Notes: a model not told the origin generated them from the sequence alone. DNA of 64,000 nt from an uncultured Planctomycetaceae bacterium (GCA_964387325.1 CAYLYE010000002.1:17911-81910), one strand, 5' to 3'; positions 1 to 46,540 are shown, numbered from the stretch's first letter. Numbers and translations: made by a program.

Positions 1-1180
1 TGAACGTCGACAGCAGCCGATAGTAATCATAGGCCGGAATCGGATCGAATTTGTGATCGTGACACCGGGCGCAGCCAATCGTGAGTCCCAGCAGCGCTGA
101 ACCGGTCGTCGACAACATATCATCCAGCGCGTCGTACCGGGTCCGCTCGACCTCGTTGGCCGTGATCTGCGTGGGAAACACGCCGGCTCCCAAGAACCCG
201 GTCGCCGACAGGGCCAGCGGATCGTCGGGCGCGAACTCGTCACCGGCCAGTTGCCAGCGAACAAACTGATCGTAGGGCATGTCACTGTTGAAGGCCTTGA
301 TAACGAAGTCGCGAAACGCCCACGCGCCGGGGCGATCGTAGTCGTGCTCGAAGCCGGCGCTCTCGGCAAACCGGGCCACGTCGAGCCAGTGCCGTGCCCA
401 ACGCTCGCCGTACTGCGGACGTTCAAGGAGTCGCTCGATCAACCGCGGCCAAGCGTCAGCCGCTGTGTCATGCTCGAAGTCGGCCACTTCGCTCGGCGTG
501 GGAGGAACTCCCAGCAGGTCAAGATACGCACGGCGAATGAGCACTCGCTTTGGTGCGCTCGGCGCAAGCGACCAACGCTTCGCGGCCGCTTTGTCGACGA
601 TGAACTTGTCGACGTCGGTGCGCCCTCCTGCGGCTGACTCGACCTTTGGCGGTAAGACCTTCGCCAGCGGACGGAAGGCCCACCAGTTCTTGTCCTCGGC
701 CGTAATGACGCGAGACCCGCTCACTGGCTTTTTGCCCGCGATCAGCGGCTGATCGTAAGGCGCGCCGTGGTTGACCCATTCGACGATCCGAGCGATGGCG
801 GCCTCGCCCAGCTTCGGCGACTCGTCGGGCATCGCCGGCTCTTCGCGGTGCGTAATCAATTTGACCAGCAGGCTCTCATCGGCATGGAACGGCACAACGG
901 CTGCGCCAGACGGTCCTCCGGCGAGCAACCCTTCGCGCGTGGCGATGTCAAACTCACCGCGTGTTTTTTCGCCGCCATGACACCGAACGCAATGTTGATT
1001 AAGCAACGGACGAACATGTTCGGCAAACATTTTCAGTCCGCGCGTCATGCGCTGGGCATGATCGGCAGGCAACGGCCGCTCGACCTGGGCTTGTGCTAGC
1101 TGCGGCGCGGCGAGACTCGCGAGGCCAAGAAGTCCGCCGATGAACCAAACCGAAGCGGTGAAGGTGACGTGCCAAGGCAT
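1..1180 (-). CDS. PSCyt1 + DUF1549 (PSCyt2) family protein, N-terminal ~393 aa; the 3' end lies beyond the left window edge
   Basis: Absent from the ORF track because it has no in-window stop. Reverse-strand translation from ATG (1180-1178) reads [31 protein letters not shown] (signal peptide), [13 protein letters not shown] (CxxCH), [53 protein letters not shown]. This is the same motif series as the full-length paralogs at 5450 and 20366. Confidence 0.85.
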
Positions 1181-5449: not shown

Positions 5450-8400
5450 ATGCCGGCCGCTCGAATCAACCTCAGCATCGTTGTCTTCGCGTTGTGTGTG
5501 GCATCGAGGCAACTCGATGCCGCCGAACCGAGCGCGTTGCAGTTTAATCGCGACATTCGGCCGATCCTTAGCGAAGCGTGCCTCCACTGTCACGGGCCGG
5601 ACCAAAGTCACCGCGAGGGAGAACTCCGGCTCGATGCGTCGGACGACGCGCTACGTCAACGTGACGGGCATCGGGTGATCGTCCCGGGCAAACCCGAGCT
5701 GAGTGAGTTGATTCGCCGGATCACGTCGTCCGATCCGGACACGCGAATGCCGCCCCCGAAGGCTGAGCGCCAACTCACTCCCAAGCAGATCGAAACCCTG
5801 AGGCAGTGGGTTGCTCAAGGCGCGCCATTCGAGTCGCACTGGTCATTCGTGCCTCCCAAAGCACCACCGCTTCCTGAGGTCATCGATCGCAATTGGGGCC
5901 GCGAATCGCTCGATCGCTTTGTACTGAACCGGCTCGAGCGCGCCGGGCTCAAGCCCAATCCCGAAGCCGATCGCTACACGCTCGCTCGACGCGCGGCGCT
6001 CGACTTGACCGGTCTGCCACCATCGCTCGCCGAGGTCGAGTCGTTTGTGAACGACAAGTCCCCGGAAGCCTTCGAGCAGTACGTCGACCGGCTCCTAGCC
6101 TCGCCCCGATTCGGCGAACGAATGGCAGTCCCCTGGCTCGACGCGGCCCGATACGCCGACACCAACGGATATCAGACCGATGGCCCGCGCTACATGTGGC
6201 GCTGGCGAGATTGGGTCATCGATGCGTTCAACCGGAACCTGCCCTTCGATCAATTCACGATCGAGCAGCTGGCGGGCGATTTATTGCCGCAGCCCACCCT
6301 CGATCAGCTCATTGCGACCGGGTTCAATCGCAATCATCGGGCGAATGCCGAGGGGGGGATCATCGCCGAGGAGTTCCGCATCGAGTACGTCGTCGACCGT
6401 GTCGATACCACCGCGACAGTCTGGCTCGGGCTCACACTCGGCTGCGCTCGCTGTCACGACCACAAGTACGACCCGATCAGTCAGCGAGAGTACTATCAGT
6501 TGTTTGCCTTTTTCAACAACGTGCCTGAGTTGGGCAAAGTGATCCGCGACAACAATTCACCCCCGATGGTACAAGCCCCGACGCCGGAGATTCGCGCGCG
6601 GATGACCGAGCTGCAAAAGCGTCTGCAAGAACTGGAGCAACAATCAGCCGCACAAATGCAAGCCTTCCTGGCCGGTCAATCACGCTGGGAAGCGACTCTC
6701 GGCGGTGTTCAAGACGAGCAGTGGTCGCCATCGGCCCATCAGATCGTGTACGCGCCGCTCGACGGTCAAGAAAAACTCGTCGAAGGCAAGGGGAACTTTG
6801 TCAGCGGCCGAATCGGCAAGGCGGTCAAGCTTGAGCACGGCGCGTGTGTCGATCTTGGCGACGTCGGCGATTTCAAACATACCGATCGCTTCAGCCTCGG
6901 TGCGTGGCTCTGGCTCGACTCGCCCGACGGCACGATCGTCTCGCGAATGGAAGACGACTTCAATCACAAAGGATACGACCTGCATGTCGAGCAGGGGAAA
7001 TTGCAATTCGAGCTCAGCGGTCGGCTGCTCGACGATGCCATTCGAATCGAGACGCTTGAGGCGTTGCCGCAGCGGCGTTGGTGTCATGTGCTGGCCACCT
7101 ATGACGGCCGCGAATTTGCTCGCGGCGTGACCCTGTACGTCGACGGGATACCCCGGCCGACGCGCGTCATTCTCGACACGCTTAGCAATGCCTCGAAGAA
7201 CACGCAGCCACTACGGGTCGGCACGCGCGGCGAAGGCCCCCAACTGCGTGGCCTCGTCGATGACGTGCGGGTCTTCGATCGCGATCTGGACGCGGCCACC
7301 GTGACAGCCATTGCCTGCGGCGACTCGATCTCGGCCGTGGCGAAAATCTCGCCCGACAAACGCACCCCAACTCAGCAACGCAAGCTGCGAGCCTATTTCA
7401 TCGCCCATCACGCGCCTGCGACACTGCAAACGCTTCTGCAAGCGACGGACGACGCTCGGGAGCACCTTCGCGCCTTCGACGCCAAAGTTCCCACGGTGAT
7501 GGTGATGCAAGAGATGAGCGAGCCGCGGACAACAAACGTGCTGCTGCGTGGTGAGTACGACAAGCCGGGCGAGCAGGTCACGGCCAATACTCCCGCGTCG
7601 CTCGGGGCGCTCTCGACGGATCGTCGACCTAACCGGCTCGATTTAGCCCGCTGGCTCGTGGATCGCAACAACCCTCTCACCGCGCGGGTGACTGTCAATC
7701 GGTTCTGGCAACATCTGTTCGGGCTCGGGTTGGTGAAAACGCCCGAAGACTTCGGCTCGCAAGGCGAACCTCCCGTGCAAGCCGAACTGCTCGATCATTT
7801 GGCCACGCAGTTCATCAACAGCGGCTGGGATGTGAAGCGGCTGCTGCGGTCGATCGTGCTCAGTTCGACGTATCGGCAGTCATCGCAGGCCTCGGCGGAG
7901 CAATTGACCCGCGATCCGGAAAATCGCCTGCTGGGTCGTGGTGCTCGGTTCCGTTTGTCGGCCGAAACGATCCGCGACCAGGCGCTCGCCGCGAGCGGTC
8001 TGCTCGACGCTCGCATTGGTGGACCGAGTGTCAAACCGTATCAGCCTGAGGGGCTCTGGGAAGAAGTCGCGGCGACCATTGTCCCGTACGTGCAAGATCA
8101 CGGGCCCGACTTATATCGGCGTGGCATGTACACGTTCTGGAAGCGGACGGTCGCGCCGCCATCGATGGTTGGCTTCGACGCGGCTGGCCGTGAGGCGTGT
8201 GTCGTGCGGACGGCGCGGACCAACACGCCGCTACAGGCTCTCAACTTGCTCAACGACGTGGCGTTTGTCGAAGCGACACGCGTACTCGCTCAACGCGCAC
8301 TTCAATCGTCGATGAGCATTGATGAGCGGATCAGGTTCATGTTTCGGGCGCTGCTCGTACGATCGCCGCGCGACGCCGAGCTACGCGTCTTGCATCGCGG

Positions 8401-8569
8401 GTTTGAGCAGCATCTCGCCCGGTATCGAGCAGCACCGGCCGAGGCGCAACGCCTGCTGAGCTTTGGTGAGTCGCCCCGCGATGAACGACTTGACATGCCC
8501 GAGCACGCCGCCTACACGACCATCGCCGGTGTGATTCTCAACCTCGACGAAACAATCACGAGGGAATAA
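5450..8569 (+). CDS. PSCyt1 (cytochrome-c-like) + DUF1549 + LamG + DUF1553 (PSD1) protein
   Basis: 1039 aa. Signal peptide, then '[16 protein letters not shown]' (CxxCH), 'WSFVPP', '[13 protein letters not shown]', '[18 protein letters not shown]' and '[12 protein letters not shown]'. A central concanavalin/LamG-like segment follows (GRIGKAVKL...LYVDG...VDDVRVF), then the C-terminal DUF1553 motifs '[28 protein letters not shown]'. Confidence 0.9.
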
Positions 8570-8571
8570 CG

Positions 8572-10032
8572 ATGTACGACGAAACGACCATCCGCCTGCT
8601 CCAGCGTCGCCAGTTCCTCACACAGAGCGGCACGAGCCTGGGGAGCATGGCGCTCGCATCGTTGTTGGCCGAGGACGGTTACGCGGCCGAGTCGAGTGAT
8701 GCCGCCGTCCACGGTGGCCTGTCGGGGTTGCCCCACTTTGCTCCCAAAGCCAAGCGAGTGATTTATCTGTTTCAGTCGGGCGCTCCGTCGCAGCTGGAGT
8801 TGTTCGATCCCAAGCCGGGGCTGGAAAAATATCGCGGGACCGATTTGCCCGACTCGATTCGCCAAGGTCAACGGCTCACCGGAATGACCTCGGCTCAAAA
8901 GTCGTTCCCGATCGCCCCCAGCATGTTCAAATTTCAGCAGCATGGTCAAAGTGGCACGTGGTTCAGCGAGCTGCTGCCGAATTTGGCCGGTCTCTCCGAC
9001 GAGATGTGTGTGATCAAAAGCCTGCACACCGAGGCGATCAATCACGACCCGGCGATCACGTTCATCACGACCGGTCATCAGCTGGCGGGCCGCCCGAGCA
9101 TCGGTTCCTGGGTCGGTTACGGTCTCGGCAGCGAGAACCATGACCTGCCGGCGTTCATCGCGATGGTGTCGCGCGGGACGGGCCGGCCAGCCGATCAACC
9201 GTTGTACGATCGACTGTGGGGGAGTGGCTTTCTCCCCTCACGACATCAAGGGGTGAAATTTCGTAGCGTGGGCGATCCCGTGCTGTATTTGTCGAATCCA
9301 CCAGGGGTCGATGCGTCAGGGCGTCGACAACAGCTCGACGACCTCGCGGAGCTGAATCGGCTCAAGCTCGATGCGCAGGGAGATCCTGAGATCGCGACCC
9401 GCATTGCGCAGTACGAACTCGCGTATCGCATGCAGAGCAGCGTGCCGGAATTGATCGACATTCGCAACGAACCGCAACACGTGCTCGACATGTACGGGTC
9501 GGAGGTAAACCGTCCGGGGACGTTTGCCGCCAACTGCTTGCTCGCCCGACGGCTCGCTGAGCGCGGCGTGCGATTTATTCAACTCTTTCACATGGGTTGG
9601 GATCAGCACACGCGACTGCCCGATCAAATTCCACGGCAGTGCAGCGACATCGATCGACCGTGTGCCGCTTTGCTACGCGATCTGCGTCAGCGGGGTCTGC
9701 TTGACGACACGCTGGTGGTCTGGGGAGGCGAGTTTGGCCGGACCGTGTATTGCCAGTCGACGTTGACCCCGACCGACTACGGTCGCGATCACCATCCCCG
9801 TTGTTACACGATCTGGATGGCCGGCGGCGGCATCCGTCGCGGTCTGAGCTACGGTGCCACGGACGACTACAGTTACAACATCACGGCCGACCCCGTCCAC
9901 GTGCATGACCTGAATGCGACCATCTTGCACTGCCTGGGGGTCGACCACAAACGACTGACGTTCAAGTTCCAGGGCCGCCACTTCCGGTTGACCGACGTTC
10001 ATGGCGAACGTGTGAAACCGATCCTGGCTTAA
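8572..10032 (+). CDS. DUF1501 protein (sulfatase/alkaline-phosphatase-like), Tat signal
   Basis: 486 aa. Twin-arginine N-terminus '[25 protein letters not shown]'. DUF1501 hallmarks '[22 protein letters not shown]', '[10 protein letters not shown]', 'GRDHHP', 'TIWMAGGGI'. The start is 2 nt after the upstream stop. Confidence 0.9.
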
Positions 10033-10072: not shown

Positions 10073-11587
10073 CTAGGCGCGATCCCAATAGCTATAGTTT
10101 GCCTTGAGCTGCGTCATCGTGAGTGTCACCAAGCCAGGTGCCGAGCCGTTGTTGATGCCCCAAGGGTTGAACAGCGTCACAGTTTGGGCATTGCTGTCGA
10201 CACTCGCGACAACGTACTGGTGATTGCCGACGACCGACTTCAAGCTGGGGGTCGAGGTCGAGGCGAAGCCGATCATTTTTCCGGCCGCGAAAGCGTTCGC
10301 CACCGAAGCAAAGGTGATCGAAGAAGTCGACGCGGTGACCGAGGTCACGTTGGCAATCTGCTTAACAGCCTGCGAGAAGTACCCTCCGGCGACCGCCTGG
10401 TATGAGTTCACGCCATTACCGGGCAGGCCTTGGCGGAGCCAGCCAGCCTCGTTGATCTGGCAGTAAGCTTTCTCAGCCATCGCGACCCAAAGCACGTTGC
10501 TTGAGCTGCTGGCCGTTTGTCCCATATTGGCAAAGACCAACCGACCGCTCGAGACGGGCAGCATCGAGTCGACCGTCACGTAGTCGGCCTTACCGTTATT
10601 ATAGAACCGCACGGTGTAGGTGCCGTCGCCATTGACGGTGAACATGCTTTTGACGGCGTTGGGATTTTTGAGGGCCGCTTCGGCCAGCGTGGCGACGAAG
10701 TAGCAATCTCCCACGGCGCCTTGTTTCACATCGGTGTACACCGGACCATTGCTGGCAAACAATTTGCCCGAGGCATTCGCGTAAGCGAAGGTCGTGGAGT
10801 TGTACTTGGCCAGCGGATGATCGGTTCCCAGGAACCACTTGCTGACCAGCTTGTCGAGTTGTGTTGTGGTCGAAGTGCTAGTCAAGTTGCCGAGCGCGGT
10901 CCCTTGATAGCTCTTATTCGCGGCGTTCCCTTGCACAACGTCCTTGGTCAACACTTTGACGCTGTCGTAAGATCCAAACAGACTGTCAGTCGCGGCGATT
11001 TTAGAGAGGTCGGAATATTCATTCGCTGACATTGTTTTATCAGCGCTCACTTGGCGGAATATGCCCATCATTTCATTGCGATTGATCGCGCTATCGGCAT
11101 TGGCAGCACGCGCGAGGCTACGAATGGCCGCGTCTTTGATGTTGCGATCGTACCAATCGAGTGCCGAACCACCAATGGACGTCACACCGGTTGCCGAGAC
11201 CGCCAGTGCACCGTTACCGCTGAGATACGTATAACTTCCATCGAGTAGCTTGACGTTGTCGAGCCCCGCGCCGGCGTTGAGCGTGATCGACTTGCCGAAT
11301 TTCTGCCCGCTTGTCACCAGCCCATTGAGGCTGACCGCATCGGTGCCCGTGCCGCTATTGATGACGACCGAATTGATGCGCGAGGTGAAGAAGCCGGAGT
11401 TGACGCCATCGATCGAGACCGTGCCGCCTGATTGGCGTAACACGATGCTGTCATCACCGCTGGTGCCGGTGATCGTCAACACTCCCGTACCGCTGAGACT
11501 GGCCACTAGCCCGGCGAGCATCGATCGATCTTCGAGCTTCTCAACGCGAAAACGGAGCCGATTGGCAGGAATCTCTTTGGTTCGCAT
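10073..11587 (-). CDS. secreted calpain-like cysteine protease (peptidase C2 core) with planctomycete 'LEDR' N-terminal motif
   Basis: 504 aa. N-terminus 'RLRFRVEKLEDRSMLAG'. GDD/Gly-rich repeats. C-terminal half carries calpain triad contexts: 'QGAVGDCYFVATLAEAAL' (Cys295), 'GNHQYVV' (His456), 'LFNPWG' (Asn474). Confidence 0.8.
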   Translation of the reverse strand: MRTKEIPANRLRFRVEKLEDRSMLAGLVASLSGTGVLTITGTSGDDSIVLRQSGGTVSIDGVNSGFFTSRINSVVINSGTGTDAVSLNGLVTSGQKFGKSITLNAGAGLDNVKLLDGSYTYLSGNGALAVSATGVTSIGGSALDWYDRNIKDAAIRSLARAANADSAINRNEMMGIFRQVSADKTMSANEYSDLSKIAATDSLFGSYDSVKVLTKDVVQGNAANKSYQGTALGNLTSTSTTTQLDKLVSKWFLGTDHPLAKYNSTTFAYANASGKLFASNGPVYTDVKQGAVGDCYFVATLAEAALKNPNAVKSMFTVNGDGTYTVRFYNNGKADYVTVDSMLPVSSGRLVFANMGQTASSSSNVLWVAMAEKAYCQINEAGWLRQGLPGNGVNSYQAVAGGYFSQAVKQIANVTSVTASTSSITFASVANAFAAGKMIGFASTSTPSLKSVVGNHQYVVASVDSNAQTVTLFNPWGINNGSAPGLVTLTMTQLKANYSYWDRA

Positions 11588-17893: not shown

Positions 17894-19030
17894 TCAAAGG
17901 CCCATCACCTCGGCCAGTTTTACGAGGCGGCTTTTTTCGCCCATCGATTTGACCCCCGCGTGAATAATGGCGGTCACTTCGAGAATCTCCTGATGGGGCA
18001 CCGGCTCGACACCCGTCATCACCATCCGCCGAAAGGTGTCCGCCTGATTGAGCATCTGGTAGTGATGCCCATACCAGTAATGATCTTCAATCGCCGGTGA
18101 GTAGGTGTACACCTTCTTGGCAAAGAAGGCGGTCGTCGAAGAGTACCGCGGGCCAGCATCGGGGCGACCGCACCACACTTCGGCCGGCGGCTTGTCGGGA
18201 TACGTAATGAGCAGATGACAGGTATTACCATACTCGTACATGTTGACGGCCTCGACCCCCGCACCGCACAGGGTCATCACCATCCACACCGGATGCTGGC
18301 CATAAATGACCCAGCGGTCGTAGTCATGCGCGCCGGCCTGCGAGGCGAGCACATATTGCAGTGGCCCATACTCGCCCGAGGCTTTCATACGCAACGTTTC
18401 TTCGGTTCCCCATTGATAGCGATAGATGCTCGACGACATCAGAGGCGCTTTGTGCTGACGAGCAAATTCGAGAATCTTGCGTGTGCCGGCCACCGACGCG
18501 CCGATCGGCTTGTCGCAGAACGTGGGGAGCCCGCGCTCCAGGCCCGGAGCACAAAGATCGAAATGATCTTCGCCATAACCGCTGGCGTCGCCCACCCACA
18601 CGGCATCGACCTCTTTAACCATTTGCTCCAGAGATGTGCAGACCTGCACGCCCGGAAACGCCTCGCAGAAAATCTTGGCAATTTCCGGATCTTGTTCGTA
18701 GTAATGTGAAATCACCGTATTGCCAAACGGCCAGCGGTTGAACGTCATCTGCGGGTTGCGTAGGTAGTTGTGAAACAACTGCACCGTGCCGGGATCTTTG
18801 TACTTCTTGATCGCATCGAGATTGCACTCGGGATGAAAATACTGAGCAAAGTGCCACGTGTGACCATTGAGCCGCTGCGCCTTACCTTGAATGCGAGCCG
18901 AGACCACGCCAATCTTCAAAACCTTGTCTGGCTTGGTCGCCGTTTCGGCAGCAGGAGCATTCGGGGCAAGAAATTGCGAACCGGCCGCAAGGGCCGCCGC
19001 AGAGAGTAACTGTCGACGCTGTGGATTCAT
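17894..19030 (-). CDS. Gfo/Idh/MocA-family oxidoreductase, Tat signal
   Basis: The ORF runs to 19069 (TTG). Met14 (ATG 19030-19028) opens 'MNPQRRQLLSAAALAAGSQFLAPNAPAAE' (twin-arginine). 'LKIGVVS' lies at the Rossmann start. Length and overall pattern match periplasmic Gfo/Idh/MocA-like proteins. Confidence 0.75.
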   Translation of the reverse strand: MNPQRRQLLSAAALAAGSQFLAPNAPAAETATKPDKVLKIGVVSARIQGKAQRLNGHTWHFAQYFHPECNLDAIKKYKDPGTVQLFHNYLRNPQMTFNRWPFGNTVISHYYEQDPEIAKIFCEAFPGVQVCTSLEQMVKEVDAVWVGDASGYGEDHFDLCAPGLERGLPTFCDKPIGASVAGTRKILEFARQHKAPLMSSSIYRYQWGTEETLRMKASGEYGPLQYVLASQAGAHDYDRWVIYGQHPVWMVMTLCGAGVEAVNMYEYGNTCHLLITYPDKPPAEVWCGRPDAGPRYSSTTAFFAKKVYTYSPAIEDHYWYGHHYQMLNQADTFRRMVMTGVEPVPHQEILEVTAIIHAGVKSMGEKSRLVKLAEVMGL

Positions 19031-19204
19031 GGGATAAAATCTGCGCGAAAGGGTGAAGTTCAAATGCAAGCATCTAGCAGTCTAACTGCGACCCGCGAGA
19101 GTGACAACAAAATCGATCCATGTGACGCACCGGACTCCGCATGTAGAATTCAACGTCTTGATTCGTAGTCACTCCCTCACCCGCTCGACTCTGGTTGGTT
19201 CACT

Positions 19205-20251
19205 GTGCTTGGTCTCCATCGCACTGAAGTCGTTAATCTGATTTCCCACTGGGAGTTTCCTCTCGCACATGCGGCGCGGCTCTGGCGATATGTTTATGTC
19301 GATAACATGCAAGACTTCTCCGCGATGATCGACTTGCCCGTGTTATTACGCCAGCGGCTCGCTCAAGACGTCTCCTGGAAGCTACCCCGGCTCGTGCAGG
19401 AAGTTCGCAGCGACGATCAACGCACGCGCAAGTTTCTGCTGGCACTCGTCGACGGAGTTGTCATCGAGACAGTACTCATGCAGCAGCGCAACCGCTGGAC
19501 GGTCTGCCTCAGCTCCCAGGCTGGCTGTCCACTCGGCTGTGTGTTTTGCGCCACCGGTCAAGCTGGCTTCACTCGAAACCTGACCTCCGCCGAGATCGTG
19601 TCGCAAGTCCTATTCAGCGAGCAGGTTCTCCGTTGCGAATCGTTAGGCCATGTGCGCAACGTGGTCGTCATGGGCATGGGCGAACCATTACTCAATTACG
19701 ACGCGATGCTCAAGGCTCTCGATATCCTGCACGATCCCGGCGGACTAGCGCTCGGCGGCAAGCAGATCACTCTGAGTACGGTCGGCGTCGTGCCAGGCAT
19801 CATCCAACTCGCCGACGAGCGACGTCCTTACTCGCTGGCGGTCTCGCTACATGCGGCCACCCAAGCAGATCGGGCAGAGCTACTGCCCGTTGCGCGGACT
19901 TGGCCGCTCGACGAGTTGCTCGACGCCTGCCGTTACTATACGCGGCAACTCGATCGCCGAGTCTTCATCGAGTGGACGTTGATCGCTGGCCAGAACGACT
20001 CGGTCGATACCGCACGACAGTTGGCCGAGTTGCTCCATAAACTGCCCGCGCAGGTCAATTTAATTCCGCTCAATCGGACGCGCGGTTACGACGGCGCCCC
20101 GGGCGAGCCCGACATGGTCGAGCGGTTTCATCGCACCCTGCGCGATCGTGGCCTGAAGGTGAGCGTCCGTCAGCGGCGGGGCATCGACATTGCCGCCGGT
20201 TGCGGTCAACTTGCCGGTATGGTGTCGTTGAGCGACTCCGTTTCGCAGTAA
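19205..20251 (+). CDS. rlmN: 23S rRNA/tRNA (adenine-C2)-methyltransferase RlmN (radical SAM)
   Basis: 348 aa. Radical-SAM cluster motif 'GCPLGCVFCATG' (CxxxCxxC), 'VVMGMGEPLLNYD', 'TLSTVG', 'LAVSLHA', and 'NLIPLN' with the C-terminal 'IDIAAGCGQL'. Confidence 0.9.
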   Translation: MLGLHRTEVVNLISHWEFPLAHAARLWRYVYVDNMQDFSAMIDLPVLLRQRLAQDVSWKLPRLVQEVRSDDQRTRKFLLALVDGVVIETVLMQQRNRWTVCLSSQAGCPLGCVFCATGQAGFTRNLTSAEIVSQVLFSEQVLRCESLGHVRNVVVMGMGEPLLNYDAMLKALDILHDPGGLALGGKQITLSTVGVVPGIIQLADERRPYSLAVSLHAATQADRAELLPVARTWPLDELLDACRYYTRQLDRRVFIEWTLIAGQNDSVDTARQLAELLHKLPAQVNLIPLNRTRGYDGAPGEPDMVERFHRTLRDRGLKVSVRQRRGIDIAAGCGQLAGMVSLSDSVSQ

Positions 20252-20365: not shown

Positions 20366-22390
20366 ATGGTGTGTTTGTCGATCAGGTGCCACATGCGATG
20401 CATGGTGTCGTTCCGTGTCCTGGGGATAGCCGTAGCTACACTGGGACTGCTTGTTGACCTCGCCTCAGCAGCCTCGCCGCAGAGCAAAAGCCTGCCTTGG
20501 TCGTTCAAGCCGATTGCGAATCCCAAACCGCCACAGGTCAGCCAGGCGAATTGGGCCCGAGATGATCTCGATCGTTTCGTGCTCGCGACACTCGAACAGC
20601 AGAAGCTTGTCCCCAACCGCGATGCTGATCGCTACGTGCTAATGCGTCGCGTGACACTCGATCTTACCGGCTTGCCTCCGAGCGAGGATCAGATCGCCGC
20701 GTTCCTCGCCGATCGATCGAATGACGATCAGGCGCTGGCTAAAGTTGTCGATCGACTCCTGACTTCACCGCGCTTTGGCGAACGATGGGCGCGTCACTGG
20801 CTCGATGTGGTGCATTACGCCGACAGTGCCGGCAGGACTTTTAATCCACCGCTGACGTATGCTTGGCGCTACCGCGACTACGTGATCGACGCCTTCAATC
20901 AAGACAAGCCTTACGATCGCTTCGTGCTCGAACAACTCAGCGGCGATTTGCTGCCCGCCAAGACTCTTGCCGAACGCCGCGAGAATCTCGTCGCCACGGG
21001 CATGCTCGCACTCACGGCTTTTGATCTGCAAGCGCTCGACTCGCGGCAGTATGAGATGGACTGCATCGACGATCAGATCGACGTGCTCTCGCGGACATTT
21101 TTGGGGCTGACGATCGCCTGTGCCCGTTGTCACGACCACAAGTACGACCCGGTAAGCACACGCGATTATTACGCCCTGGCGGGCATATTCTACAGCTCAC
21201 GGTCCCGGCCCGGGGTCTCGTATCGCGGCTCGGGCAATGGCTACGTCGATCATGAAGAGTTGATCACGCTCCCCATTGCGCTGGGGACCAAAGCGGTCGC
21301 TGCGAAGCTCGTGCCGGGGGTCCATTCGATGAACGACTACAACGATGAGTGGCGGACAGGCAAACGCAACATCCGTTATACGACCGATCCGAATTTGTGC
21401 ATCGGGCTCGCCGACGACGAGATCAACGACTGTGCGATACGAGTGAAGGGGGACCCGCACGATCATGGCGAGACACCGTCACGCGGCGACCTACGTATTC
21501 CCGCGCTGCCGCGCATGACCCGACCTGGCAGTCAATCCAGCGGACGACTGGAACTGGCCAAATGGATCACGTCGCGCGATCATCCGCTCACGGCGCGGGT
21601 CATAACCAATCGCGTCTGGCAACACCTGTTTGGGCGTGGTCTCGTATCGACGAGTGACGACTTTGGCGTGATGAGCGAGCCCCCATCGCATCCTGAACTG
21701 CTCGACTTTTTATCGCGGCGGTTGATGGACCAGGGGTGGTCGCTCAAAAAGCTGATTCGCTCGATCGTGCTAAGCCGGACCTATCGACTCAGCAGCGATA
21801 CCGTCGGCACGACGGCCAAGGACACGGATGCCGACAATCGTTACTACTGGCGCGCCAATCTACGTCGTCTCGAGTTCGAACCGCTCCGTGACAGCCTATT
21901 GTTCGTTGCCGGGCGGTTGTCGTTCGATCGGCCCGAGGGGGTGCAAGTGACGGGCATTGGTGGCAAGAGCAACAAGACCTCGGTAGCCAGCGTGCTCGAT
22001 CTCGACGACTCGTGCCGTACCGTCTATTTGCCCGTGATCCGCTCGCGACTGCCCGACTCGTATGGCACGTTCGACTTTCCTGACCCGTGCCAGATCGTGG
22101 GTCAACGTGAGGTGACGACCGTCGCGCCGCAGGCCTTGTTCTTCATGAACAATCGGCTCGTGTCGAACTGTGCGGCCGAGGTGGTCGACGAACTGGCCAA
22201 GTCGGCCAAGCCGAACGACGCCGCGCGGGTCAACTCGTTGTATCTACGATTGCTGGGGCGACCTGCTACGGCAGACGAGCTGCGCGACGTGGCTGGACTA
22301 TTGCCGAGCCTAGCTTCGTCGCCAGCCGAAAATTGGACGACGCTCGTACAAGCGTTGTTGTGCAGCGCCCCGTTTCGTTATGTGCGATAA
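20366..22390 (+). CDS. DUF1549 (PSCyt2) + DUF1553 (PSD1) protein, no N-terminal CxxCH domain
   Basis: 674 aa; the likely true start is Met13 at 20402, giving the signal MVSFRVLGIAVATLGLLVDLASA. Motifs 'WSFKP', '[13 protein letters not shown]', '[18 protein letters not shown]', '[12 protein letters not shown]', 'HPLTARVITNRVWQHLFGRGLV.TSDDFG'. Confidence 0.9.
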   Translation: MVCLSIRCHMRCMVSFRVLGIAVATLGLLVDLASAASPQSKSLPWSFKPIANPKPPQVSQANWARDDLDRFVLATLEQQKLVPNRDADRYVLMRRVTLDLTGLPPSEDQIAAFLADRSNDDQALAKVVDRLLTSPRFGERWARHWLDVVHYADSAGRTFNPPLTYAWRYRDYVIDAFNQDKPYDRFVLEQLSGDLLPAKTLAERRENLVATGMLALTAFDLQALDSRQYEMDCIDDQIDVLSRTFLGLTIACARCHDHKYDPVSTRDYYALAGIFYSSRSRPGVSYRGSGNGYVDHEELITLPIALGTKAVAAKLVPGVHSMNDYNDEWRTGKRNIRYTTDPNLCIGLADDEINDCAIRVKGDPHDHGETPSRGDLRIPALPRMTRPGSQSSGRLELAKWITSRDHPLTARVITNRVWQHLFGRGLVSTSDDFGVMSEPPSHPELLDFLSRRLMDQGWSLKKLIRSIVLSRTYRLSSDTVGTTAKDTDADNRYYWRANLRRLEFEPLRDSLLFVAGRLSFDRPEGVQVTGIGGKSNKTSVASVLDLDDSCRTVYLPVIRSRLPDSYGTFDFPDPCQIVGQREVTTVAPQALFFMNNRLVSNCAAEVVDELAKSAKPNDAARVNSLYLRLLGRPATADELRDVAGLLPSLASSPAENWTTLVQALLCSAPFRYVR

Positions 22391-22403
22391 CTTCGTGTGA
22401 AAG

Positions 22404-23798
22404 ATGAACTGGACAACCTTCATGCCTCACCATCGATCGTTGCCTCGCAGCGACTCGCGTCGCCGCTTGCTACAGCAAACGGCCACCGGATTTGGTTGGT
22501 TGGCGCTGCAGGCGCTCGCCACCGAGTCGGCTCGCGCAGCCGAACCGCGCTACCGCTCGCCACTGGCTCCCAAGGAGCCCCACTATCAGCCCCGGGCCAA
22601 GCGCGTGATCTTCCTGTTCATGGCCGGAGGACCATCACACCTGGACACGTTTGATTGGAAGCCCGAACTGGCCCGCGTGGGGCGTGGAGGGGGCAAAAGT
22701 CAATTGCTCGCACCGGTCGTCGACTTCGCCCCGGCCGGCAAGAGCGGCATTCACATGGCCACGATCTTTCCACACTTGTCCCGGCATGCCGATGATCTAT
22801 GCTTGCTCAACGGCGTTACGACCGGCAACCCGGGCCATCAACAAGCGACCGTCGCACTCCACACCGGTAGCGAGAATTTTGTCCGCCCCTCGCTCGGTGC
22901 CTGGGTCACCTACGGCCTGGGGACCGAGGCCCAGGATCTGCCCGGCTTCGTTACGATCGATCCGATCAACGATCTCGGCGGGGCAATGAACTACGGCTCG
23001 GCGTTTTTGCCCGCCAGCTACCAAGGCACGCGGCTCGGAGCAGGGCAGGGGAGTGTCCCCAACATTGCCAACCGTCGCCTCGACAGCGCCGAGCAGCGCC
23101 GGCAACTCGACTTCGTGCAGCGCACCAATCGCCGACTGCTCGACCAGTTGCCCGACAACCCCGAGCTCGAAGGACTCATCGAGTCGTACGAGCTGGCCTT
23201 CAAGATGCAAACCTCGGTCCCTGACACGCTCAGTTTCGACAACGAGCCCGACTCGATTCGCGAACTCTACGGTCTCGACGACGGCGAAACTCGCAACTTC
23301 GCCTCACAATGCCTGATGGCGCGACGGTTAGCCGAGAAAGGGGTGCGATTCATTCAGCTCACCAGCCCCGGTTGGGACCACCATAACAACCTCCGCGAGC
23401 ACATCACGCGCGGCGCCACCTCGATCGACAAACCAATCGCCGGGCTGATTGCCGACCTCAAACAGCGTGACATGCTTAAAGACACGCTGATCGTCTGGGG
23501 AGGCGAGTTCGGCCGCACGGCGCGTGACGACAAAGGAGACGGCAACGGTCGCGGACATGCCAACAAGGGGTTCTCAATGTGGATGGCCGGCGGCGGTGTG
23601 AAAGGGGGCCTGCGCTACGGCAAGACCGACGAGCTGGGCGAGGTCGCCGTCGAGGGAACGATGGATACGCATGATGTCCACGCCACGATTTTATATCTGC
23701 TTGGCCTCGACCACGAAGGGCTCACCTATCGCTACGCCGGCCGCGACTTCCGGTTGACCGACACGAAAGGGAAAGTCCATCGCGGGATTTTGAGTTAA
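22404..23798 (+). CDS. DUF1501 protein, Tat signal
   Basis: 464 aa. 'SDSRRRLLQQTATGFGWLALQALA' (twin-arginine), 'KRVIFLFMAGGPSHLDTFDWKP', '[10 protein letters not shown]', 'GRGHA', 'MWMAGGGV'. It starts 13 nt after the upstream gene. Confidence 0.9.
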   Translation: MNWTTFMPHHRSLPRSDSRRRLLQQTATGFGWLALQALATESARAAEPRYRSPLAPKEPHYQPRAKRVIFLFMAGGPSHLDTFDWKPELARVGRGGGKSQLLAPVVDFAPAGKSGIHMATIFPHLSRHADDLCLLNGVTTGNPGHQQATVALHTGSENFVRPSLGAWVTYGLGTEAQDLPGFVTIDPINDLGGAMNYGSAFLPASYQGTRLGAGQGSVPNIANRRLDSAEQRRQLDFVQRTNRRLLDQLPDNPELEGLIESYELAFKMQTSVPDTLSFDNEPDSIRELYGLDDGETRNFASQCLMARRLAEKGVRFIQLTSPGWDHHNNLREHITRGATSIDKPIAGLIADLKQRDMLKDTLIVWGGEFGRTARDDKGDGNGRGHANKGFSMWMAGGGVKGGLRYGKTDELGEVAVEGTMDTHDVHATILYLLGLDHEGLTYRYAGRDFRLTDTKGKVHRGILS

Positions 23799-26096: not shown

Positions 26097-28526
26097 ATGC
26101 TCACCCCACGTTGCTTCGTTTTTACCGCGCTGCTGTTGCTCCTGATTGCTTCGGGCAGTCCGAGTTGGAGCGCCGAGGCGGCACCATCGTTTGCACAAGC
26201 CGGCAAGACGTTTCTGGTCAAGCACTGCGTGCGGTGTCATGGGGCGAACATGCCCAAGGCCGATCTGTCATTGCACTCGCTGACCGACGAGGCGGCGGTG
26301 CTCAAGTTTCGCAAACGCATGGAAGGGGTGCTCGACATGGTCGAGGCGGGCGAGATGCCCCCGGCCAAAGAGCCTCGCCCGTCGGCCGACGAGATCGCGG
26401 GCTTCCTCGCCTCGGTGCGCGGCATTTATGAAAAGGCTGACTCGAGCGGTGCGGTCGACCCGGGCCGGATCACGATGCGGCGACTCAATCGCGCCGAGTA
26501 CAACAACACGGTTCGCGATTTATTGCTGGTCGATTTTCAGCCGGCCGAGGATTTTCCGCCCGACGACGTGGGGCACGGCTTCGACAATATCGGCGACGTG
26601 CTCAGCGTCTCGCCGCTCTTGATGGAACGTTACCTGGCTGCGGCCGAGACTATCGCCAACCGGGTCATTCTGGCCGACATCCCCAAGCCGTCGAAGCGAT
26701 ATCTGTCGGGCCGATACTTGCAGCCGAACAATGCTCAGACCTCGCAAGGTCGTTTCCGGCAAATGGATGTGACGTCGAAGGAGCCCGTGCATGCGGGCCC
26801 TTTCACCGCGGCAGGAGATTACCTGAAGTTCACAGCCGATGCCGACCTCTTCTTTCGTGCCACGCTCTATGCCGAATCCAAGAGCAAAGCCCCCGTGAAG
26901 GTCGTGTTGTTCATCTCAGGCAAGGAACTGAGCGAGGTCTCCAGCGACGCCGAAATCGATCAACTGCTGGGCGCTGCCGTGCCGCAGATGAAGCCACTGA
27001 AGATCATGGGGACCTTCGAGATCACGGCCCGAGACGCGAAACAGCTGCAAACGATCGAAGTGCCGATCAATCACATGGGCAAGATCACGAAAGCGGGGAT
27101 CGCCTTGCTCAAAGGTCCCGAGGGGGACGAGCCCGCCAAGCTACACATCGAGAACCTTTGGAGCGAAGGGCCACTCGACACGCGTCCCGCCTCGCATCGG
27201 ATGATCTTGGCCAGCGATGAGAATGCATCTCCGCAGCAGCGAACGCGCGAGGTGCTCAATCGATTGCTCCCGCGAGCCTATCGGCGCCCTGTCACCAAGG
27301 ACGAAATCGAGTCGCTGGCGCGATTTGCCGATCAGGTCGTGGCCGACGGCCAGAAGTGGGAGCTGGGCATGCGACGGGTCGTGCAGGCGCTGCTCTGCTC
27401 GCCGAAGTATTTGTTCCGCGTCGAACTCGATGACCGGCCACAGACAAAGGAATCCCACGCAATTGACGAGTATCAACTCGCCTCGCGATTGAGTTATTTT
27501 CTTTGGAGCAGCATGCCCGACGACGAACTGTTCGGCTTGGCCGCAAAAAAACAGTTGACCGCACGGCTCGAAGAGCAAGTGCGTCGCATGCTGAAAGATC
27601 CCAAGTCAGCAGCGTTGATCGACAACTTCGCATTGCAATGGCTGCAGTTGGGCAAGTTGCAATCGCTCACCCCCGATGCGCAACTGTTTCCCTCGTTCAA
27701 CGAGAAACTGCGTCAGGCGATGATGGCTGAGACCAAGATGTTCATGCAGGAGATTGCCCGCGAAGATCGCAGCGTGCTCGACTTTATCCAGGCAGACTTC
27801 ACGTACATGAACGAGCCGCTCGCCAAACACTACGGCATGCTCGACAAGTTTCGCAAGAGTCTCAACGACGACGCCAAGTCGCGTGGCGTGCCGGTGAGAT
27901 ACGACAGTTACGCTCGCGTCCCCCTGACGGGTACCGATCGTGGCGGCTTGCTCACCCAGGCCAGCATTCTCACCGTGACCTCGAACCCGACGCGTACTTC
28001 GCCGGTCAAGCGGGGTCGTTGGATCCTCGAACAAATCCTCGGCACGCCCCCCCCTCCGCCGCCACCCAATGTGCCCGAGCTTGAGCAGCAGAAGGGACAG
28101 CTCACCGGATCACTGCGTCAGCGGATGGAACAGCACCGCAAGAACCCGGCCTGTGCCAGTTGTCATGCCCGTATGGACCCAATCGGCTTCGCGTTCGAGC
28201 ACTTCGACGCGGTCGGGGCGTACCGGCAGAAAGACGGCGAGTTTGAGATCGACGCTAGTGGGACTTTAACGGACGGGCGGAATATCCAGGGCCCGGCCGG
28301 TCTGCGCGAGGTATTATTAGAGAAGAAGGAACTGTTTACCCGATCATTAACGGAGCAGATGTTGACCTATGCCCTGGGACGGGGCCTCGAGTACTACGAC
28401 AAGCGTGCCGTCGACCGAATGGTTGCCGCGGCGGCCAAAGACGATTACAAATTCTCTCGGTTAGTCATTGAAATTGCACGGAGCGATCCGTTCCGTCTGC
28501 GTCGAGGAAAGGAAACAAACCCATGA
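26097..28526 (+). CDS. DUF1592/DUF1595/DUF1587/DUF1588/DUF1585-type (PSCyt3/PSD2-5) protein
   Basis: 809 aa. Signal peptide, then 'FLVKHCVRCHG' (CxxCH), 'RRLNRAEYNNTVRDLL', 'YQLASRLSYFLWSSMPDDEL', 'FALQWLQL', a poly-Pro 'GTPPPPPPPNVPE', and 'CASCHARMDPIGFAFEHFDAVGAYR'. Confidence 0.9.
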   Translation: MLTPRCFVFTALLLLLIASGSPSWSAEAAPSFAQAGKTFLVKHCVRCHGANMPKADLSLHSLTDEAAVLKFRKRMEGVLDMVEAGEMPPAKEPRPSADEIAGFLASVRGIYEKADSSGAVDPGRITMRRLNRAEYNNTVRDLLLVDFQPAEDFPPDDVGHGFDNIGDVLSVSPLLMERYLAAAETIANRVILADIPKPSKRYLSGRYLQPNNAQTSQGRFRQMDVTSKEPVHAGPFTAAGDYLKFTADADLFFRATLYAESKSKAPVKVVLFISGKELSEVSSDAEIDQLLGAAVPQMKPLKIMGTFEITARDAKQLQTIEVPINHMGKITKAGIALLKGPEGDEPAKLHIENLWSEGPLDTRPASHRMILASDENASPQQRTREVLNRLLPRAYRRPVTKDEIESLARFADQVVADGQKWELGMRRVVQALLCSPKYLFRVELDDRPQTKESHAIDEYQLASRLSYFLWSSMPDDELFGLAAKKQLTARLEEQVRRMLKDPKSAALIDNFALQWLQLGKLQSLTPDAQLFPSFNEKLRQAMMAETKMFMQEIAREDRSVLDFIQADFTYMNEPLAKHYGMLDKFRKSLNDDAKSRGVPVRYDSYARVPLTGTDRGGLLTQASILTVTSNPTRTSPVKRGRWILEQILGTPPPPPPPNVPELEQQKGQLTGSLRQRMEQHRKNPACASCHARMDPIGFAFEHFDAVGAYRQKDGEFEIDASGTLTDGRNIQGPAGLREVLLEKKELFTRSLTEQMLTYALGRGLEYYDKRAVDRMVAAAAKDDYKFSRLVIEIARSDPFRLRRGKETNP

Positions 28527-29869
28527 GCCATTATCAACACCTATCGCGTCGCCGTGTGCTACAAGGCTTGGGAGCAGCCGTGGCTTTGCCGTGGCTCGAA
28601 GCGATGGGCCCCGTCGCGGCTTGGGCTGCCACAGGCGAGCGCCGCGCGGCCGCAGCTCCGAACCGGATTGCCTTCCTGTATGTGCCCAACGGCATCAACA
28701 TGGAAGACTGGACCCCCGGCTACGAAGGGCCTCTTGGCGAGTTGACCTCGATTCTCAAGGAACTCGAGCCGCACAAGCAACACATCAACGTGCTCACCGG
28801 CCTGACGGCCGACAAGGCCCGCTCGCACGGCGATGGCGGCGGTGACCATGCCCGCGCCTTGTCAGCGTTCCTTACCGGAGCGCAACCGCGCAAAACCGAT
28901 GGCACCGACATCCGCGCGGGCGTGAGCGTCGACCAAGTTGCCGCGGCTCGTATCGGCGAAATGACGCGCCTCGCTTCGCTCGAAATCGGCTGCGATGCCA
29001 GCAACATGGCCGGCAATTGCGACTCGGGCTATAGCTGCGTGTACAACTCGACCATGTCATGGCGCTCGGCCACGCAACCGATTCCGAAAGAGTCGAACCC
29101 CAAGCTCGTGTTCGAGCGGCTCTTTGGTGGTGCTGGCGACAGCAACCGCGCCCAGCGAGACGCCCTGCGAAAAAGCATTTTGGACTTCGTGCGAGATGAC
29201 TCGGCCGCGCTCGCCAAACAGCTCGGCGCCAACGATCGCCGCAAGCTCGACGAATACTTCCACGCCATTCGCGATATCGAACAACGGATCGTCCGCGCGG
29301 CCAAGCTCCCCGAGATCAAGAAGCCCGACATGGCGGCTCCCGAGGGAATTCCCAAGGACTACGAAGAACACTGCCGGTTGCTTTGCGATCTGCTCGTGCT
29401 CGCGTTTCAGGCCGACGTGACCCGCGTGAGCACGTATGTGCTGGCCAACGAGGGGAGCAATCGCCCTTACTCGTTTATTGGCGTGAGCGAAGGGCACCAC
29501 GATCTCTCACATCACGGCAACGACAAGACCAAGAAACAAAAGATCGCCGAGATCAATCGTTTTCACGTGCGACAGTTGAACTACCTGCTCGGCAAGCTCA
29601 AGCAGGTGAAGGAAGGCCCCGGCACGCTGCTCGATCACTGCCTGATTGCCTACGGCAGCGGCAATAGCGACGGCAACGCACATAACCACGACAATCTGCC
29701 TGTGCTGCTCTGCGGTAACGGCGGCGGCACGGTGAAAACCGGACGACACATTCGCTACACGAACGAGACGCCGCTGAACAACCTCTGGCTCTCGATGCTC
29801 GAGCGAATCGACGTCCGCGTCCCGTTCCTGGGCGACAGCTCCGGAGCACTCGCCGGCCTGAACGGGTAA
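28523..29869 (+). CDS. DUF1552 (HxxSHH) protein, Tat signal
   Basis: 448 aa. 'LSRRRVLQGLGAAVALPWLEAM', 'RIAFLYVPNG', 'EGHHDLSHHG' (HxxSHH) and 'LIAYGSGNSDGNAHNHDNLP'. The ATG overlaps the upstream stop (ATGA). Confidence 0.9.
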   Translation: MSHYQHLSRRRVLQGLGAAVALPWLEAMGPVAAWAATGERRAAAAPNRIAFLYVPNGINMEDWTPGYEGPLGELTSILKELEPHKQHINVLTGLTADKARSHGDGGGDHARALSAFLTGAQPRKTDGTDIRAGVSVDQVAAARIGEMTRLASLEIGCDASNMAGNCDSGYSCVYNSTMSWRSATQPIPKESNPKLVFERLFGGAGDSNRAQRDALRKSILDFVRDDSAALAKQLGANDRRKLDEYFHAIRDIEQRIVRAAKLPEIKKPDMAAPEGIPKDYEEHCRLLCDLLVLAFQADVTRVSTYVLANEGSNRPYSFIGVSEGHHDLSHHGNDKTKKQKIAEINRFHVRQLNYLLGKLKQVKEGPGTLLDHCLIAYGSGNSDGNAHNHDNLPVLLCGNGGGTVKTGRHIRYTNETPLNNLWLSMLERIDVRVPFLGDSSGALAGLNG

Positions 29870-46381: not shown

Positions 46382-46540
46382 GGCAGACTCCTCTCGATTC
46401 CATAAGGCAGGCGATCCGGACCGCCTCTGATTATCAAGATTACAGAGCGACCGTCCAGTAAATTTATCGCTCACAACAGGGCACGAAAGCCCGACATCCC
46501 CCGGTCTGAGAATCGCACAACGGCTGCTTAGATGCTCGCG

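Follow-up and report, generated by a model that had tools for sequence, protein, structure and literature searches.

In a 64,000-nucleotide stretch of DNA from an uncultured Planctomycetaceae bacterium (GCA_964387325.1 CAYLYE010000002.1:17911-81910), hereafter referred to as the window, we identified three complete two-gene cassettes, each composed of a gene for a large exported protein and, directly downstream, a gene for a smaller one, together with one truncated large gene; the positions of all these open reading frames (ORFs) were verified. Each cassette very probably represents a functional unit of two genes acting in the periplasm, as the first-pass annotation of this DNA had proposed, because the adjacency of the two genes is conserved, the flanking genes differ from one locus to another, the two products diverge in a correlated manner and the gaps between the genes are tiny. 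The small subunits are divergent members of the alkaline phosphatase (AP)/sulfatase superfamily, and the large subunits carry CxxCH motifs of the kind found in c-type cytochromes. A redox-coupled two-subunit enzyme is the mechanism that we tentatively favour for such a unit, its likelihood being, on our analysis, somewhat below even.

The domains were assigned with Pfam using the gathering scores as cut-off, and the principal domains of the large subunits L1 and L2 and of the small subunits S1 to S3 were found far above these cut-offs. The cassettes belong to two families, type I (PSCyt2/PSD1 plus DUF1501), represented by two cassettes, and type II (PSD3-5-4/PSCyt3/PSD2 plus DUF1552), represented by one, so that the three complete cassettes reported by the first-pass annotation are all real but are not of one kind. 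In the first type I cassette, L1 (1039 amino acids [aa]; 5450-8569, plus strand) carries a Sec signal (5450-5524), PSCyt1 (5579-5758) with the motif CLHCH (5579-5593) and a distal Met-Pro (5747-5752), PSCyt2 (DUF1549; 5909-6526) with the motif CARCHDHK[YF]DP (6443-6475), a Laminin_G_3 (LamG) domain (6848-7303), and PSD1 (DUF1553; 7631-8395). After a gap of 2 nucleotides (nt; 8569/8572) follows S1 (486 aa; 8572-10032, plus strand), a DUF1501 protein (PF07394, Pfam E 3e-157) with the twin-arginine translocation (Tat) motif LQRRQFLT (8599-8622), a segment around H158 (9028-9075), GWDQH (9595-9609), a conserved 12-residue segment (9709-9744) and GRDHH (9781-9795). The second type I cassette has the minimal architecture: L2 (674 aa; 20366-22390, plus strand) consists of PSCyt2 (20567-21199), with the same CARCHDHK[YF]DP motif (21119-21151), and PSD1 (21542-22294), and neither PSCyt1 nor LamG was detected in it by Pfam, which bears out the earlier remark that the copies differ in architecture. 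The longest ORF of L2 starts at 20366, while the NCBI product (665 aa) is 9 codons shorter and starts at 20393; the latter is the probable true start, giving a cleaner signal peptide (MRCMVSFRVLGIAV...). S2 (464 aa; 22404-23798, plus strand), a DUF1501 protein (Pfam E 3e-134) with the Tat motif DSRRRLLQ (22452-22475), is separated from L2 by 13 nt (22390/22404). The Pfam scores for PSCyt2 (PF07583) and PSD1 (PF07587) were 297 and 331 bits in L1 and 267 and 264 bits in L2, with cut-offs of about 29.

The type II cassette encodes L3 (809 aa; 26097-28526, plus strand), with PSD3, PSD5, PSD4, PSCyt3 and PSD2 in this order, a class-I cytochrome-c-like region at the N-terminus (CVRCH, 26226-26240; MPP, 26355-26363) and the PSCyt3 motif CASCHARMDP (28152-28181), and S3 (448 aa; 28523-29869, plus strand), a DUF1552 (HXXSHH) protein (Pfam E 1e-106), the stop codon of L3 and the start codon of S3 being joined in a 4-nt ATGA overlap (28523-28526). 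S3 contains the Tat motif LSRRRVLQ (28541-28564), followed by DGGGDHARALSAFLTG (28832-28879), GNCDSGYSCVY (29012-29044), GHHDLSHHGN (29492-29521) and YGSGNSDGNAHNHD (29651-29692); all five domains of L3 and the HXXSHH domain of S3 exceed their Pfam cut-offs. The partial gene at the left edge (2-1180, minus strand, ATG at 1180) is a truncated type I large-subunit gene with PSCyt1 (CVRCH, 977-991) and PSCyt2 (CARCHDHK[YF]DP motif, 41-73), for which Pfam gave E 3e-75 for PSCyt2, 1e-12 for PSCyt1 and 5e-5 for Cytochrom_C; since it lies on the minus strand and runs off the edge, any partner gene would be located beyond the window. Its identity as a fourth large-subunit paralog, the conservation of CARCHDHK[YF]DP in all three DUF1549 copies and the coordinates, gaps, domains and motifs of the cassettes in general are thus as first described, the strand of the partial gene being added here. 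The identity is 39% between S1 and S2 and, over the two domains that they share, 49% and 36% between L1 and L2, and S1 is nearer to orthologues from other phyla than to S2; judged by sequence, the paralogues of the window are old duplicates. L2, S1 and S3 match a single NCBI contig of 83,945 bp, and the closest named relatives are planctomycete metagenome-assembled genomes (MAGs) and Anatilimnocola.

The pairing was then traced in other genomes. A genome search with the DUF1501 alignment yielded 80 loci with small subunits sharing 56-71% identity with S1. Upstream DNA was long enough at 63 of these, and at 56 (89%) of the 63 a PSCyt2/PSD1 gene was found directly upstream on the same strand, the median intergenic gap of type I being about 16 nt. 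The loci from Bryobacteraceae and Opitutus carry the same pair of PSCyt1-PSCyt2-LamG-PSD1 and DUF1501 within wholly different flanks, and in all four L2-orthologue loci examined a DUF1501 gene follows downstream while the upstream neighbours vary. Clustering of all flanking ORFs from the 80 loci gave no third gene family conserved next to the pair. For type II, an L3-type gene lies directly upstream at 31 of 46 metagenome loci (67%) and upstream on the opposite strand at one more. The other 14 (L095-L098, L106, L107, L120, L124, L131, L132, L135, L139, L142 and L149) contain no L3-type gene in the DNA covered, their DUF1552 proteins being about 67-71% identical to S3, and in 7 of them the neighbours include sigma-70, a cytidylyltransferase, GFO_IDH_MocA, an SDF transporter and several ORFs without Pfam match. 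At such loci the partner may be encoded elsewhere or may not be needed. The pairing is therefore real, tight and conserved across phyla, but it is not strict as originally claimed. In addition, the pairwise identities of large and small subunits are correlated (r=0.865, Mantel 0/999; 62 type I cassettes), a value to which shared phylogeny contributes, although paralogous cassettes too diverge in parallel.

These data bear on the trivial explanation that the two genes lie together as a mere consequence of the great abundance of both families, without functional meaning. The families are indeed huge, with 28,097 clusters of DUF1501 at 50% identity (E up to 1e-3), and some small-subunit genes stand alone. 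The same-strand adjacency at 89% of loci, with gaps of a few nt, across phyla and within varied flanks, is hardly expected from abundance, and each large-subunit type was found solely with its own small-subunit family, the two genes diverging in parallel; we consider the chance of a meaningless by-product negligible, and chance adjacency as such is refuted by the 56 of 63 loci and the co-divergence. Cassettes tend to cluster in other genomes as well. In Opitutus (L002, 4559-14811) a type I cassette adjoins a type II cassette, and at one L2-orthologue locus (L083, 6641-9413) two DUF1501 genes are arranged tail to tail.

The families had been introduced as planctomycete-specific, a description that does not hold, since at least six phyla contain close orthologues. 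Loci with S1 orthologues were found in Planctomycetota, Verrucomicrobiota, Acidobacteriota, many Bacteroidota, Rhodothermales, Armatimonadota and Poribacteria, and the identity of 56-75% to S1 is maintained over at least six phyla; S1 appears from its sequence to be under strong purifying selection. S1 orthologues were also present on contigs binned as Acidimicrobiia (L007) and Nitrosopumilus (L073); these actinobacterial and archaeal labels are probably binning errors rather than the true distribution. This spread is at odds with the proposal of Kamneva et al. (2012) that the module belongs to the machinery of intracellular membranes or compartments in the Planctomycetes-Verrucomicrobia-Chlamydiae (PVC) bacteria. 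That proposal is backed by the published finding that one type of DUF1501 cluster correlates at 0.85 with the compartmentalised PVC species (PMC3542564), but 56-71% identical orthologues with the same partner are found in Bacteroidota, Acidobacteriota, Rhodothermales and Armatimonadota, all with ordinary cell plans, so that a role in PVC compartmentalisation is largely refuted and in our estimate very remote. Near-identical cassettes are present in the cultured Bacteroidota Spirosoma, Algoriphagus and Pseudarcicella, and the MAG matches include the genera Pedobacter and Dyadobacter, with cultured and partly genetically tractable members; knock-outs and biochemistry should for this reason be easier there than in planctomycetes.

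In order to place the small subunits, we combined a structure search for DUF1552 with profile alignment for DUF1501. An AlphaFold2 model of S3, of moderate quality (predicted local distance difference test [pLDDT] 72, predicted template modelling score [pTM] 0.79), was compared with the PDB by Foldseek, and the top matches all belong to the sulfatase/AP superfamily, with E values of 1e-5 to 1e-3 and probability 1.00 for the sulfatases. The list comprises steroid sulfatase (8eg3, E 1.2e-5), carrageenan sulfatases, arylsulfatase A, choline sulfatase and sulfamidase, as well as YejM, LtaP, phosphonate monoester hydrolase and iPGM. For DUF1501 the fold evidence comes from profile alignment, based on 65 diverse homologues: hhalign aligned its C-terminal half with eight Pfam-verified sulfatases from the fetched loci (probability 90%, E 1.6e-6), and 15 of the 19 weak matches of the DUF1501 profile to the PDB are AP-superfamily enzymes. 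DUF1501 and DUF1552 aligned with each other by hhalign over 330 columns, from the signal peptide to the C-terminus (E 1.1e-4, probability 56%), a match that was not significant with a first shallow alignment and reached E 1e-4 with the more diverse one. The hhalign comparison of DUF1552 with sulfatases gave no result as the alignment was too shallow, and its fold is taken from the structure search. Sequence searches of the PDB, with single sequences as well as profiles, gave nothing significant for any subunit; the Pfam Sulfatase domain gave sub-threshold matches in 8 of 62 DUF1501 homologues (best E 0.014) and none for DUF1552; and none of the six cassette proteins is covered by a curated NCBIfam model. 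Both families are thus divergent members of the AP/sulfatase superfamily, in line with the sulfatase/phosphatase fold suggested for the small subunits at the outset.

The term hydrolase-like, also used for these subunits at the outset, agrees with the fold but not with the catalytic residues. The formylglycine motif C/S-x-P-x-R is absent from S1, S2 and S3 and is present in those true sulfatases of the same loci that reach this region, indicating that the small subunits are not canonical sulfatases. As mapped by sequence alignment, the Asp-Asp metal ligands after strand 1 likewise appear to be missing, with G-G-P-S at this site in DUF1501 and P-N-G in DUF1552, and the late-strand Asp-His/Asn site seems to be occupied by E-F in DUF1501, where E387-F388 align with these metal ligands, and by S-D-G in DUF1552. 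Other polar residues are kept throughout: H158, D344, H346, E387, R390, R405 and H407 are invariant among the 65 diverse DUF1501 homologues, and DUF1552 has nine invariant histidines, including H109, H325, H326, H330, H331, H387 and H389. The DUF1552 loop GNCDSGYSCVY (S3 residues 164-174), with two Cys, is invariant, yet its pLDDT in the model is under 50; it may form a disulfide, bind a metal or cofactor, or be modified. As for export, all three small subunits carry twin-arginine motifs (QRRQFL in S1, SRRRLL in S2 and SRRRVL in S3), followed in S1 and S2 by a hydrophobic stretch, and the TAT_signal model matched 7 of 62 DUF1501 and 19 of 65 DUF1552 homologues. A tatC gene (PF00902, E 2e-59; 46541-47659, minus strand), without link to any cassette, indicates that the Tat pathway is present, and the predicted Tat export of the small subunits is thereby sustained.

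The loss of the canonical catalytic residues might suggest a non-catalytic sensor or envelope module, in which the small subunit, as a pseudoenzyme of AP fold comparable to the YejM/PbgA periplasmic domain, would act jointly with the large subunit to sense a periplasmic ligand or the redox state and signal to regulators. YejM is in fact among the best structural and sequence matches, genes of the extracytoplasmic function (ECF)-type sigma and BlaI/BlaR types adjoin some L2 orthologues, and a link to ECF factors by Studholme is reported in the part of the later literature that quotes it (PMC2754498). Transmembrane segments and output domains are absent from both subunits, however, the numerous His, Asp, Glu and Arg residues that are invariant in the small subunits resemble an active site, the regulator neighbours are not conserved, and dozens of paralogues per genome would suit catabolic diversity better; we therefore rate a sensor as improbable.

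Turning to the large subunits, Sec-type signal peptides were predicted from their N-termini. Among 49 L1 orthologues, C44, C47, H48, G49, M100 and P101 of the N-terminal domain and C332, C335, H336, H338, K339, D341 and P342 of the second motif are at least 95% conserved, the LamG region being the least conserved stretch. In 30 homologues of L3, C44, C47, H48, M87, P88 and P89 as well as C686, C689, H690 and D694 are invariant. The sequence CxxCH[DTESN]HK[YFI]D was found in 71 of 71 type I large subunits, and the PSCyt3 motif CAxCHxxMDP resembles the PSCyt2 motif. PSCyt1 and the L3 N-terminus both show CxxCH followed by a distal Met about 50 residues on, the pattern of class-I cytochromes, and PSCyt1 carries what reads as a complete His/Met class-I c-type cytochrome signature, through which it would bind haem. 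Cytochrome models support this to differing degrees: the partial gene exceeds the cut-offs for Cytochrom_C (24.9 versus 21.3 bits) and Cytochrome_CBB3 (29.3 versus 27 bits), L1 that for the PSCyt1 model only, and the match of L3 is sub-threshold. PSCyt1 gave weak matches to FoxE, Kuenenia cytochrome c-552 and the SO2930 dihaem cytochrome family, and L3 a weak alignment to Kuenenia cytochrome c-552.

The body of the large subunit is of a different nature. The AlphaFold2 model of L2 (pLDDT 91.3, pTM 0.91) is a single compact, mainly helical unit, for which Foldseek gave no significant match in the PDB (best E 0.52) and no cytochrome among the matches, and the L2 profile matched no PDB sequence; as modelled, the PSCyt2+PSD1 body appears to be a fold without solved relative and with nothing cytochrome-like. 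PSD1 matches DUF1800 weakly (E 0.029), and the same segment weakly matches the phycobilisome linker domain, with Foldseek linker matches likewise weak; a kinship of PSD1 with DUF1800, which would echo the Proteobacterial DUF1800-DUF1501 pairs, is only a lead. Between type I and type II large subunits hhalign gave a single short weak match, from the PSD1 C-terminus to PSD5 (23% probability), and overall homology is not demonstrated by this comparison. The cassettes of types I and II look like remote variants of a single design.

The c-type cytochromes cross the membrane unfolded by Sec, while Tat carries folded and often cofactor-loaded proteins. The Sec/Tat split, the cytochrome signature, the AP/sulfatase-fold partner and the co-inheritance of tightly spaced genes make a periplasmic two-subunit enzyme the best-supported reading, and the cassette would then be a self-contained two-gene operon for such an enzyme. 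The large subunit, with a class-I c-type cytochrome domain (PSCyt1, missing from the 20366 copy) and the compact helical body, would leave the cell unfolded via Sec, as covalent haem attachment demands; the body (PSCyt2+PSD1, or PSD3-5-4/PSCyt3/PSD2) would contribute the second invariant motif, CAxCH...DP, and in some copies a lectin-like LamG insert. The small subunit, having presumably lost the formylglycine nucleophile and retained a site rich in His, Asp, Glu and Arg, would be exported folded via Tat, probably with its metal already loaded, and would provide the catalytic metal site. We infer a physical complex of the two, with haem possibly held at either motif, in which the large subunit would bind the substrate and relay electrons between the catalytic site and the respiratory chain. 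It is a further and rather doubtful step to regard DUF1501 and DUF1552 as two branches of one ancient family in which an AP scaffold was turned into a haem-coupled, non-hydrolytic catalytic subunit. If true, this would define a new enzyme class, with a large-subunit partner of a fold unseen in any solved structure; its sequence clusters, distributed over Planctomycetota, Verrucomicrobiota, Acidobacteriota and Bacteroidota, would number in the tens of thousands.

Several observations weigh against the redox-coupled enzyme. We know of no member of the AP superfamily with redox chemistry. The 20366 copy is devoid of PSCyt1, so that redox coupling, if general, must rest on the PSCyt2 CxxCH, and no cytochrome-like fold was found by Foldseek around this motif in the L2 model, even though the motif is invariant. 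About one third of the close DUF1552 orthologues and 11% of those of DUF1501 have no adjacent large gene, which implies that the small subunit may act alone. In one Pirellulales MAG (L003:834-5810) an S1 orthologue (71%) stands behind a 1659-aa GDSL-lipase/DUF7133/HEAT/F5_F8_type_C/Cytochrom_C protein, and this DUF7133/HEAT protein is, as far as its domains tell, an alternative cytochrome-bearing partner. Finally, promoter and terminator scans stayed at or below chance and were uninformative on co-transcription.

Some of the same evidence would suit a non-redox, metal-dependent esterase or transferase of the sulfo-, phospho- or phosphoethanolamine type (compare LtaS, EptA and BcsG), acting with a binding subunit on envelope polymers or oligosaccharides. 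In this reading the large subunit would serve solely to bind and present the substrate, by LamG inserts or by inserts of the carbohydrate-binding module (CBM) type, a structural disulfide or a metal site would account for the CxxCH of PSCyt2/PSCyt3, and the haem of PSCyt1 would act as an accessory sensor. The fold and the nearest relatives of the small subunits, all of them hydrolases or transferases, agree with such an activity, as do LamG in L1 and its orthologues and the PSCyt2+PSD1 model with no cytochrome-like fold. Tat export, in contrast, is unusual among ordinary sulfatases, neither the canonical nucleophile (C/S-x-P-x-R) nor the strand-1 Asp pair is present, and a conserved His/Met cytochrome domain together with a second invariant CxxCH is hard to square with mere binding. 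Genomic context points both ways: CBM fusions and sulfatase neighbours have been described (He et al. 2017; PMC5615132), Proteobacterial DUF1800-DUF1501 pairs lie within chitin-synthase operons (PMC5122149), and a true sulfatase is the next commonest neighbour of S1 orthologues (11 of 80 loci), but such sulfatases make up about 2.5% of the flanking genes, barely above the background in these phyla, and were rejected as a functional link. On balance we hold this non-redox activity, the chief rival of the redox-coupled enzyme, to be somewhat unlikely.

The genes between and around the cassettes of the window are unrelated to one another and to the cassettes; they include those for a beta-helix protein, a calpain-like protease, a GTPase, PolX, an amidohydrolase, a GFO/IDH/MocA oxidoreductase, a radical SAM protein, an enolase-superfamily protein and an S9 peptidase. 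Of these, the gene for the radical SAM protein (19205-20251, plus strand) lies 115 nt upstream of L2, with the GFO_IDH_MocA gene (17894-19069, minus strand) beyond it, and both were considered as a maturase or partner of L2 and rejected, as orthologous L2 loci have other neighbours, among them GFO_IDH_MocA, GMC with Gluconate_2-dh3, ECF-type sigma and BlaI/BlaR genes. The gene immediately downstream of S1, in the opposite orientation, encodes a calpain-family cysteine protease domain (Peptidase_C2, E 3e-21; 10073-11587, minus strand). Elsewhere in the window we noted a copper type II ascorbate-dependent monooxygenase (PHM/DBH-like) with EF-hand (42344-43888, plus strand), of a family unusual in bacteria, and members of eukaryote-like domain families, namely a G8 and CEMIP beta-helix protein (43904-46474, minus strand) and two TPR and GT41 (O-GlcNAc-transferase-like) proteins (38837-40918, minus strand; 61162-63444, plus strand).

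The PSCyt and PSD domains were reportedly named by Studholme et al. in 2004, and each large-subunit domain is present 41 times in R. baltica. Few uncharacterised gene modules of soil, freshwater and marine heterotrophs are as abundant as these pairs, still unsolved 20 years after the naming of their domains, and the problem is sharpened here by small subunits of sulfatase fold that are devoid of the sulfatase nucleophile and by a large-subunit body with no solved relative. Full-text searches of the literature up to mid-2026 found no functional study of these families, in accordance with the first-pass statement that no function is established. The pairing itself was already published: Kamneva et al. 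(2012) described the DUF1501-PSCyt1/2-PSD1 module of PVC bacteria, with Tat motif and LamG variants (PMC3542564), and He et al. (2017) described PSCyt2 and PSCyt3 genes that each adjoin their own uncharacterised family, stating that the function is not known (PMC5615132). The cassettes are further copies of the published module, and the window adds nothing new in kind. Those at 5450-10032 and 20366-23798 are exactly alike the module of Kamneva et al. in the optional Laminin_G_3, the Tat motif of DUF1501 and the signal peptide of the large protein, without any structural difference; new here is an orthologue group extending well beyond the PVC phyla, at odds with the compartmentalisation idea. 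The cassette at 26097-29869 corresponds to the PSCyt3 genes of He et al. (PMC5615132), with PSD3-PSD5-PSD4-PSCyt3-PSD2 followed by DUF1552 and overlapping codons, and the additions are the AP/sulfatase fold of DUF1552, its full-length alignment with DUF1501 and the pairing at about 67% among close orthologues.

Among better known systems, NapAB and SorAB, as generally understood, have the same division of export routes, Tat for the catalytic subunit and Sec for the c-type cytochrome, and likewise combine neighbouring genes of one orientation with a small class-I cytochrome domain. The resemblance is one of working principle, no homology being claimed: in the cassettes the catalytic subunit would have the AP/sulfatase fold in place of a molybdopterin or flavin fold, and the cytochrome forms one protein with a large body of about 600 aa. 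DUF1800 proteins are, to our knowledge, without the haem motifs of PSCyt1 and PSCyt2. Their Proteobacterial pairs with DUF1501 (PMC5122149) involve the same Tat-exported partner, and PSD1 is the domain with the weak match to DUF1800. With the formylglycine sulfatases (Pfam Sulfatase, SulfAtlas S1) and the rest of the AP superfamily, including LtaS, YejM/PbgA, phosphonate monoester hydrolase and NPP, the small subunits have a common core fold. They differ from sulfatases in having H-D-P-A or D-H-A-R in place of C/S-x-P-x-R, no Asp-Asp after strand 1, and Glu-Phe (DUF1501) or Ser-Asp-Gly (DUF1552) at the Asp-His/Asn site, and also in their Tat export and their partner gene. The C-terminal half, on the other hand, is homologous: the conserved 12-residue segment aligns with the metal-ligand strand T-x-V-I-F-T-S-D-N/H-G of sulfatases, and HDLHATILHLLG aligns with their 'DL-PT---L-G' helix.

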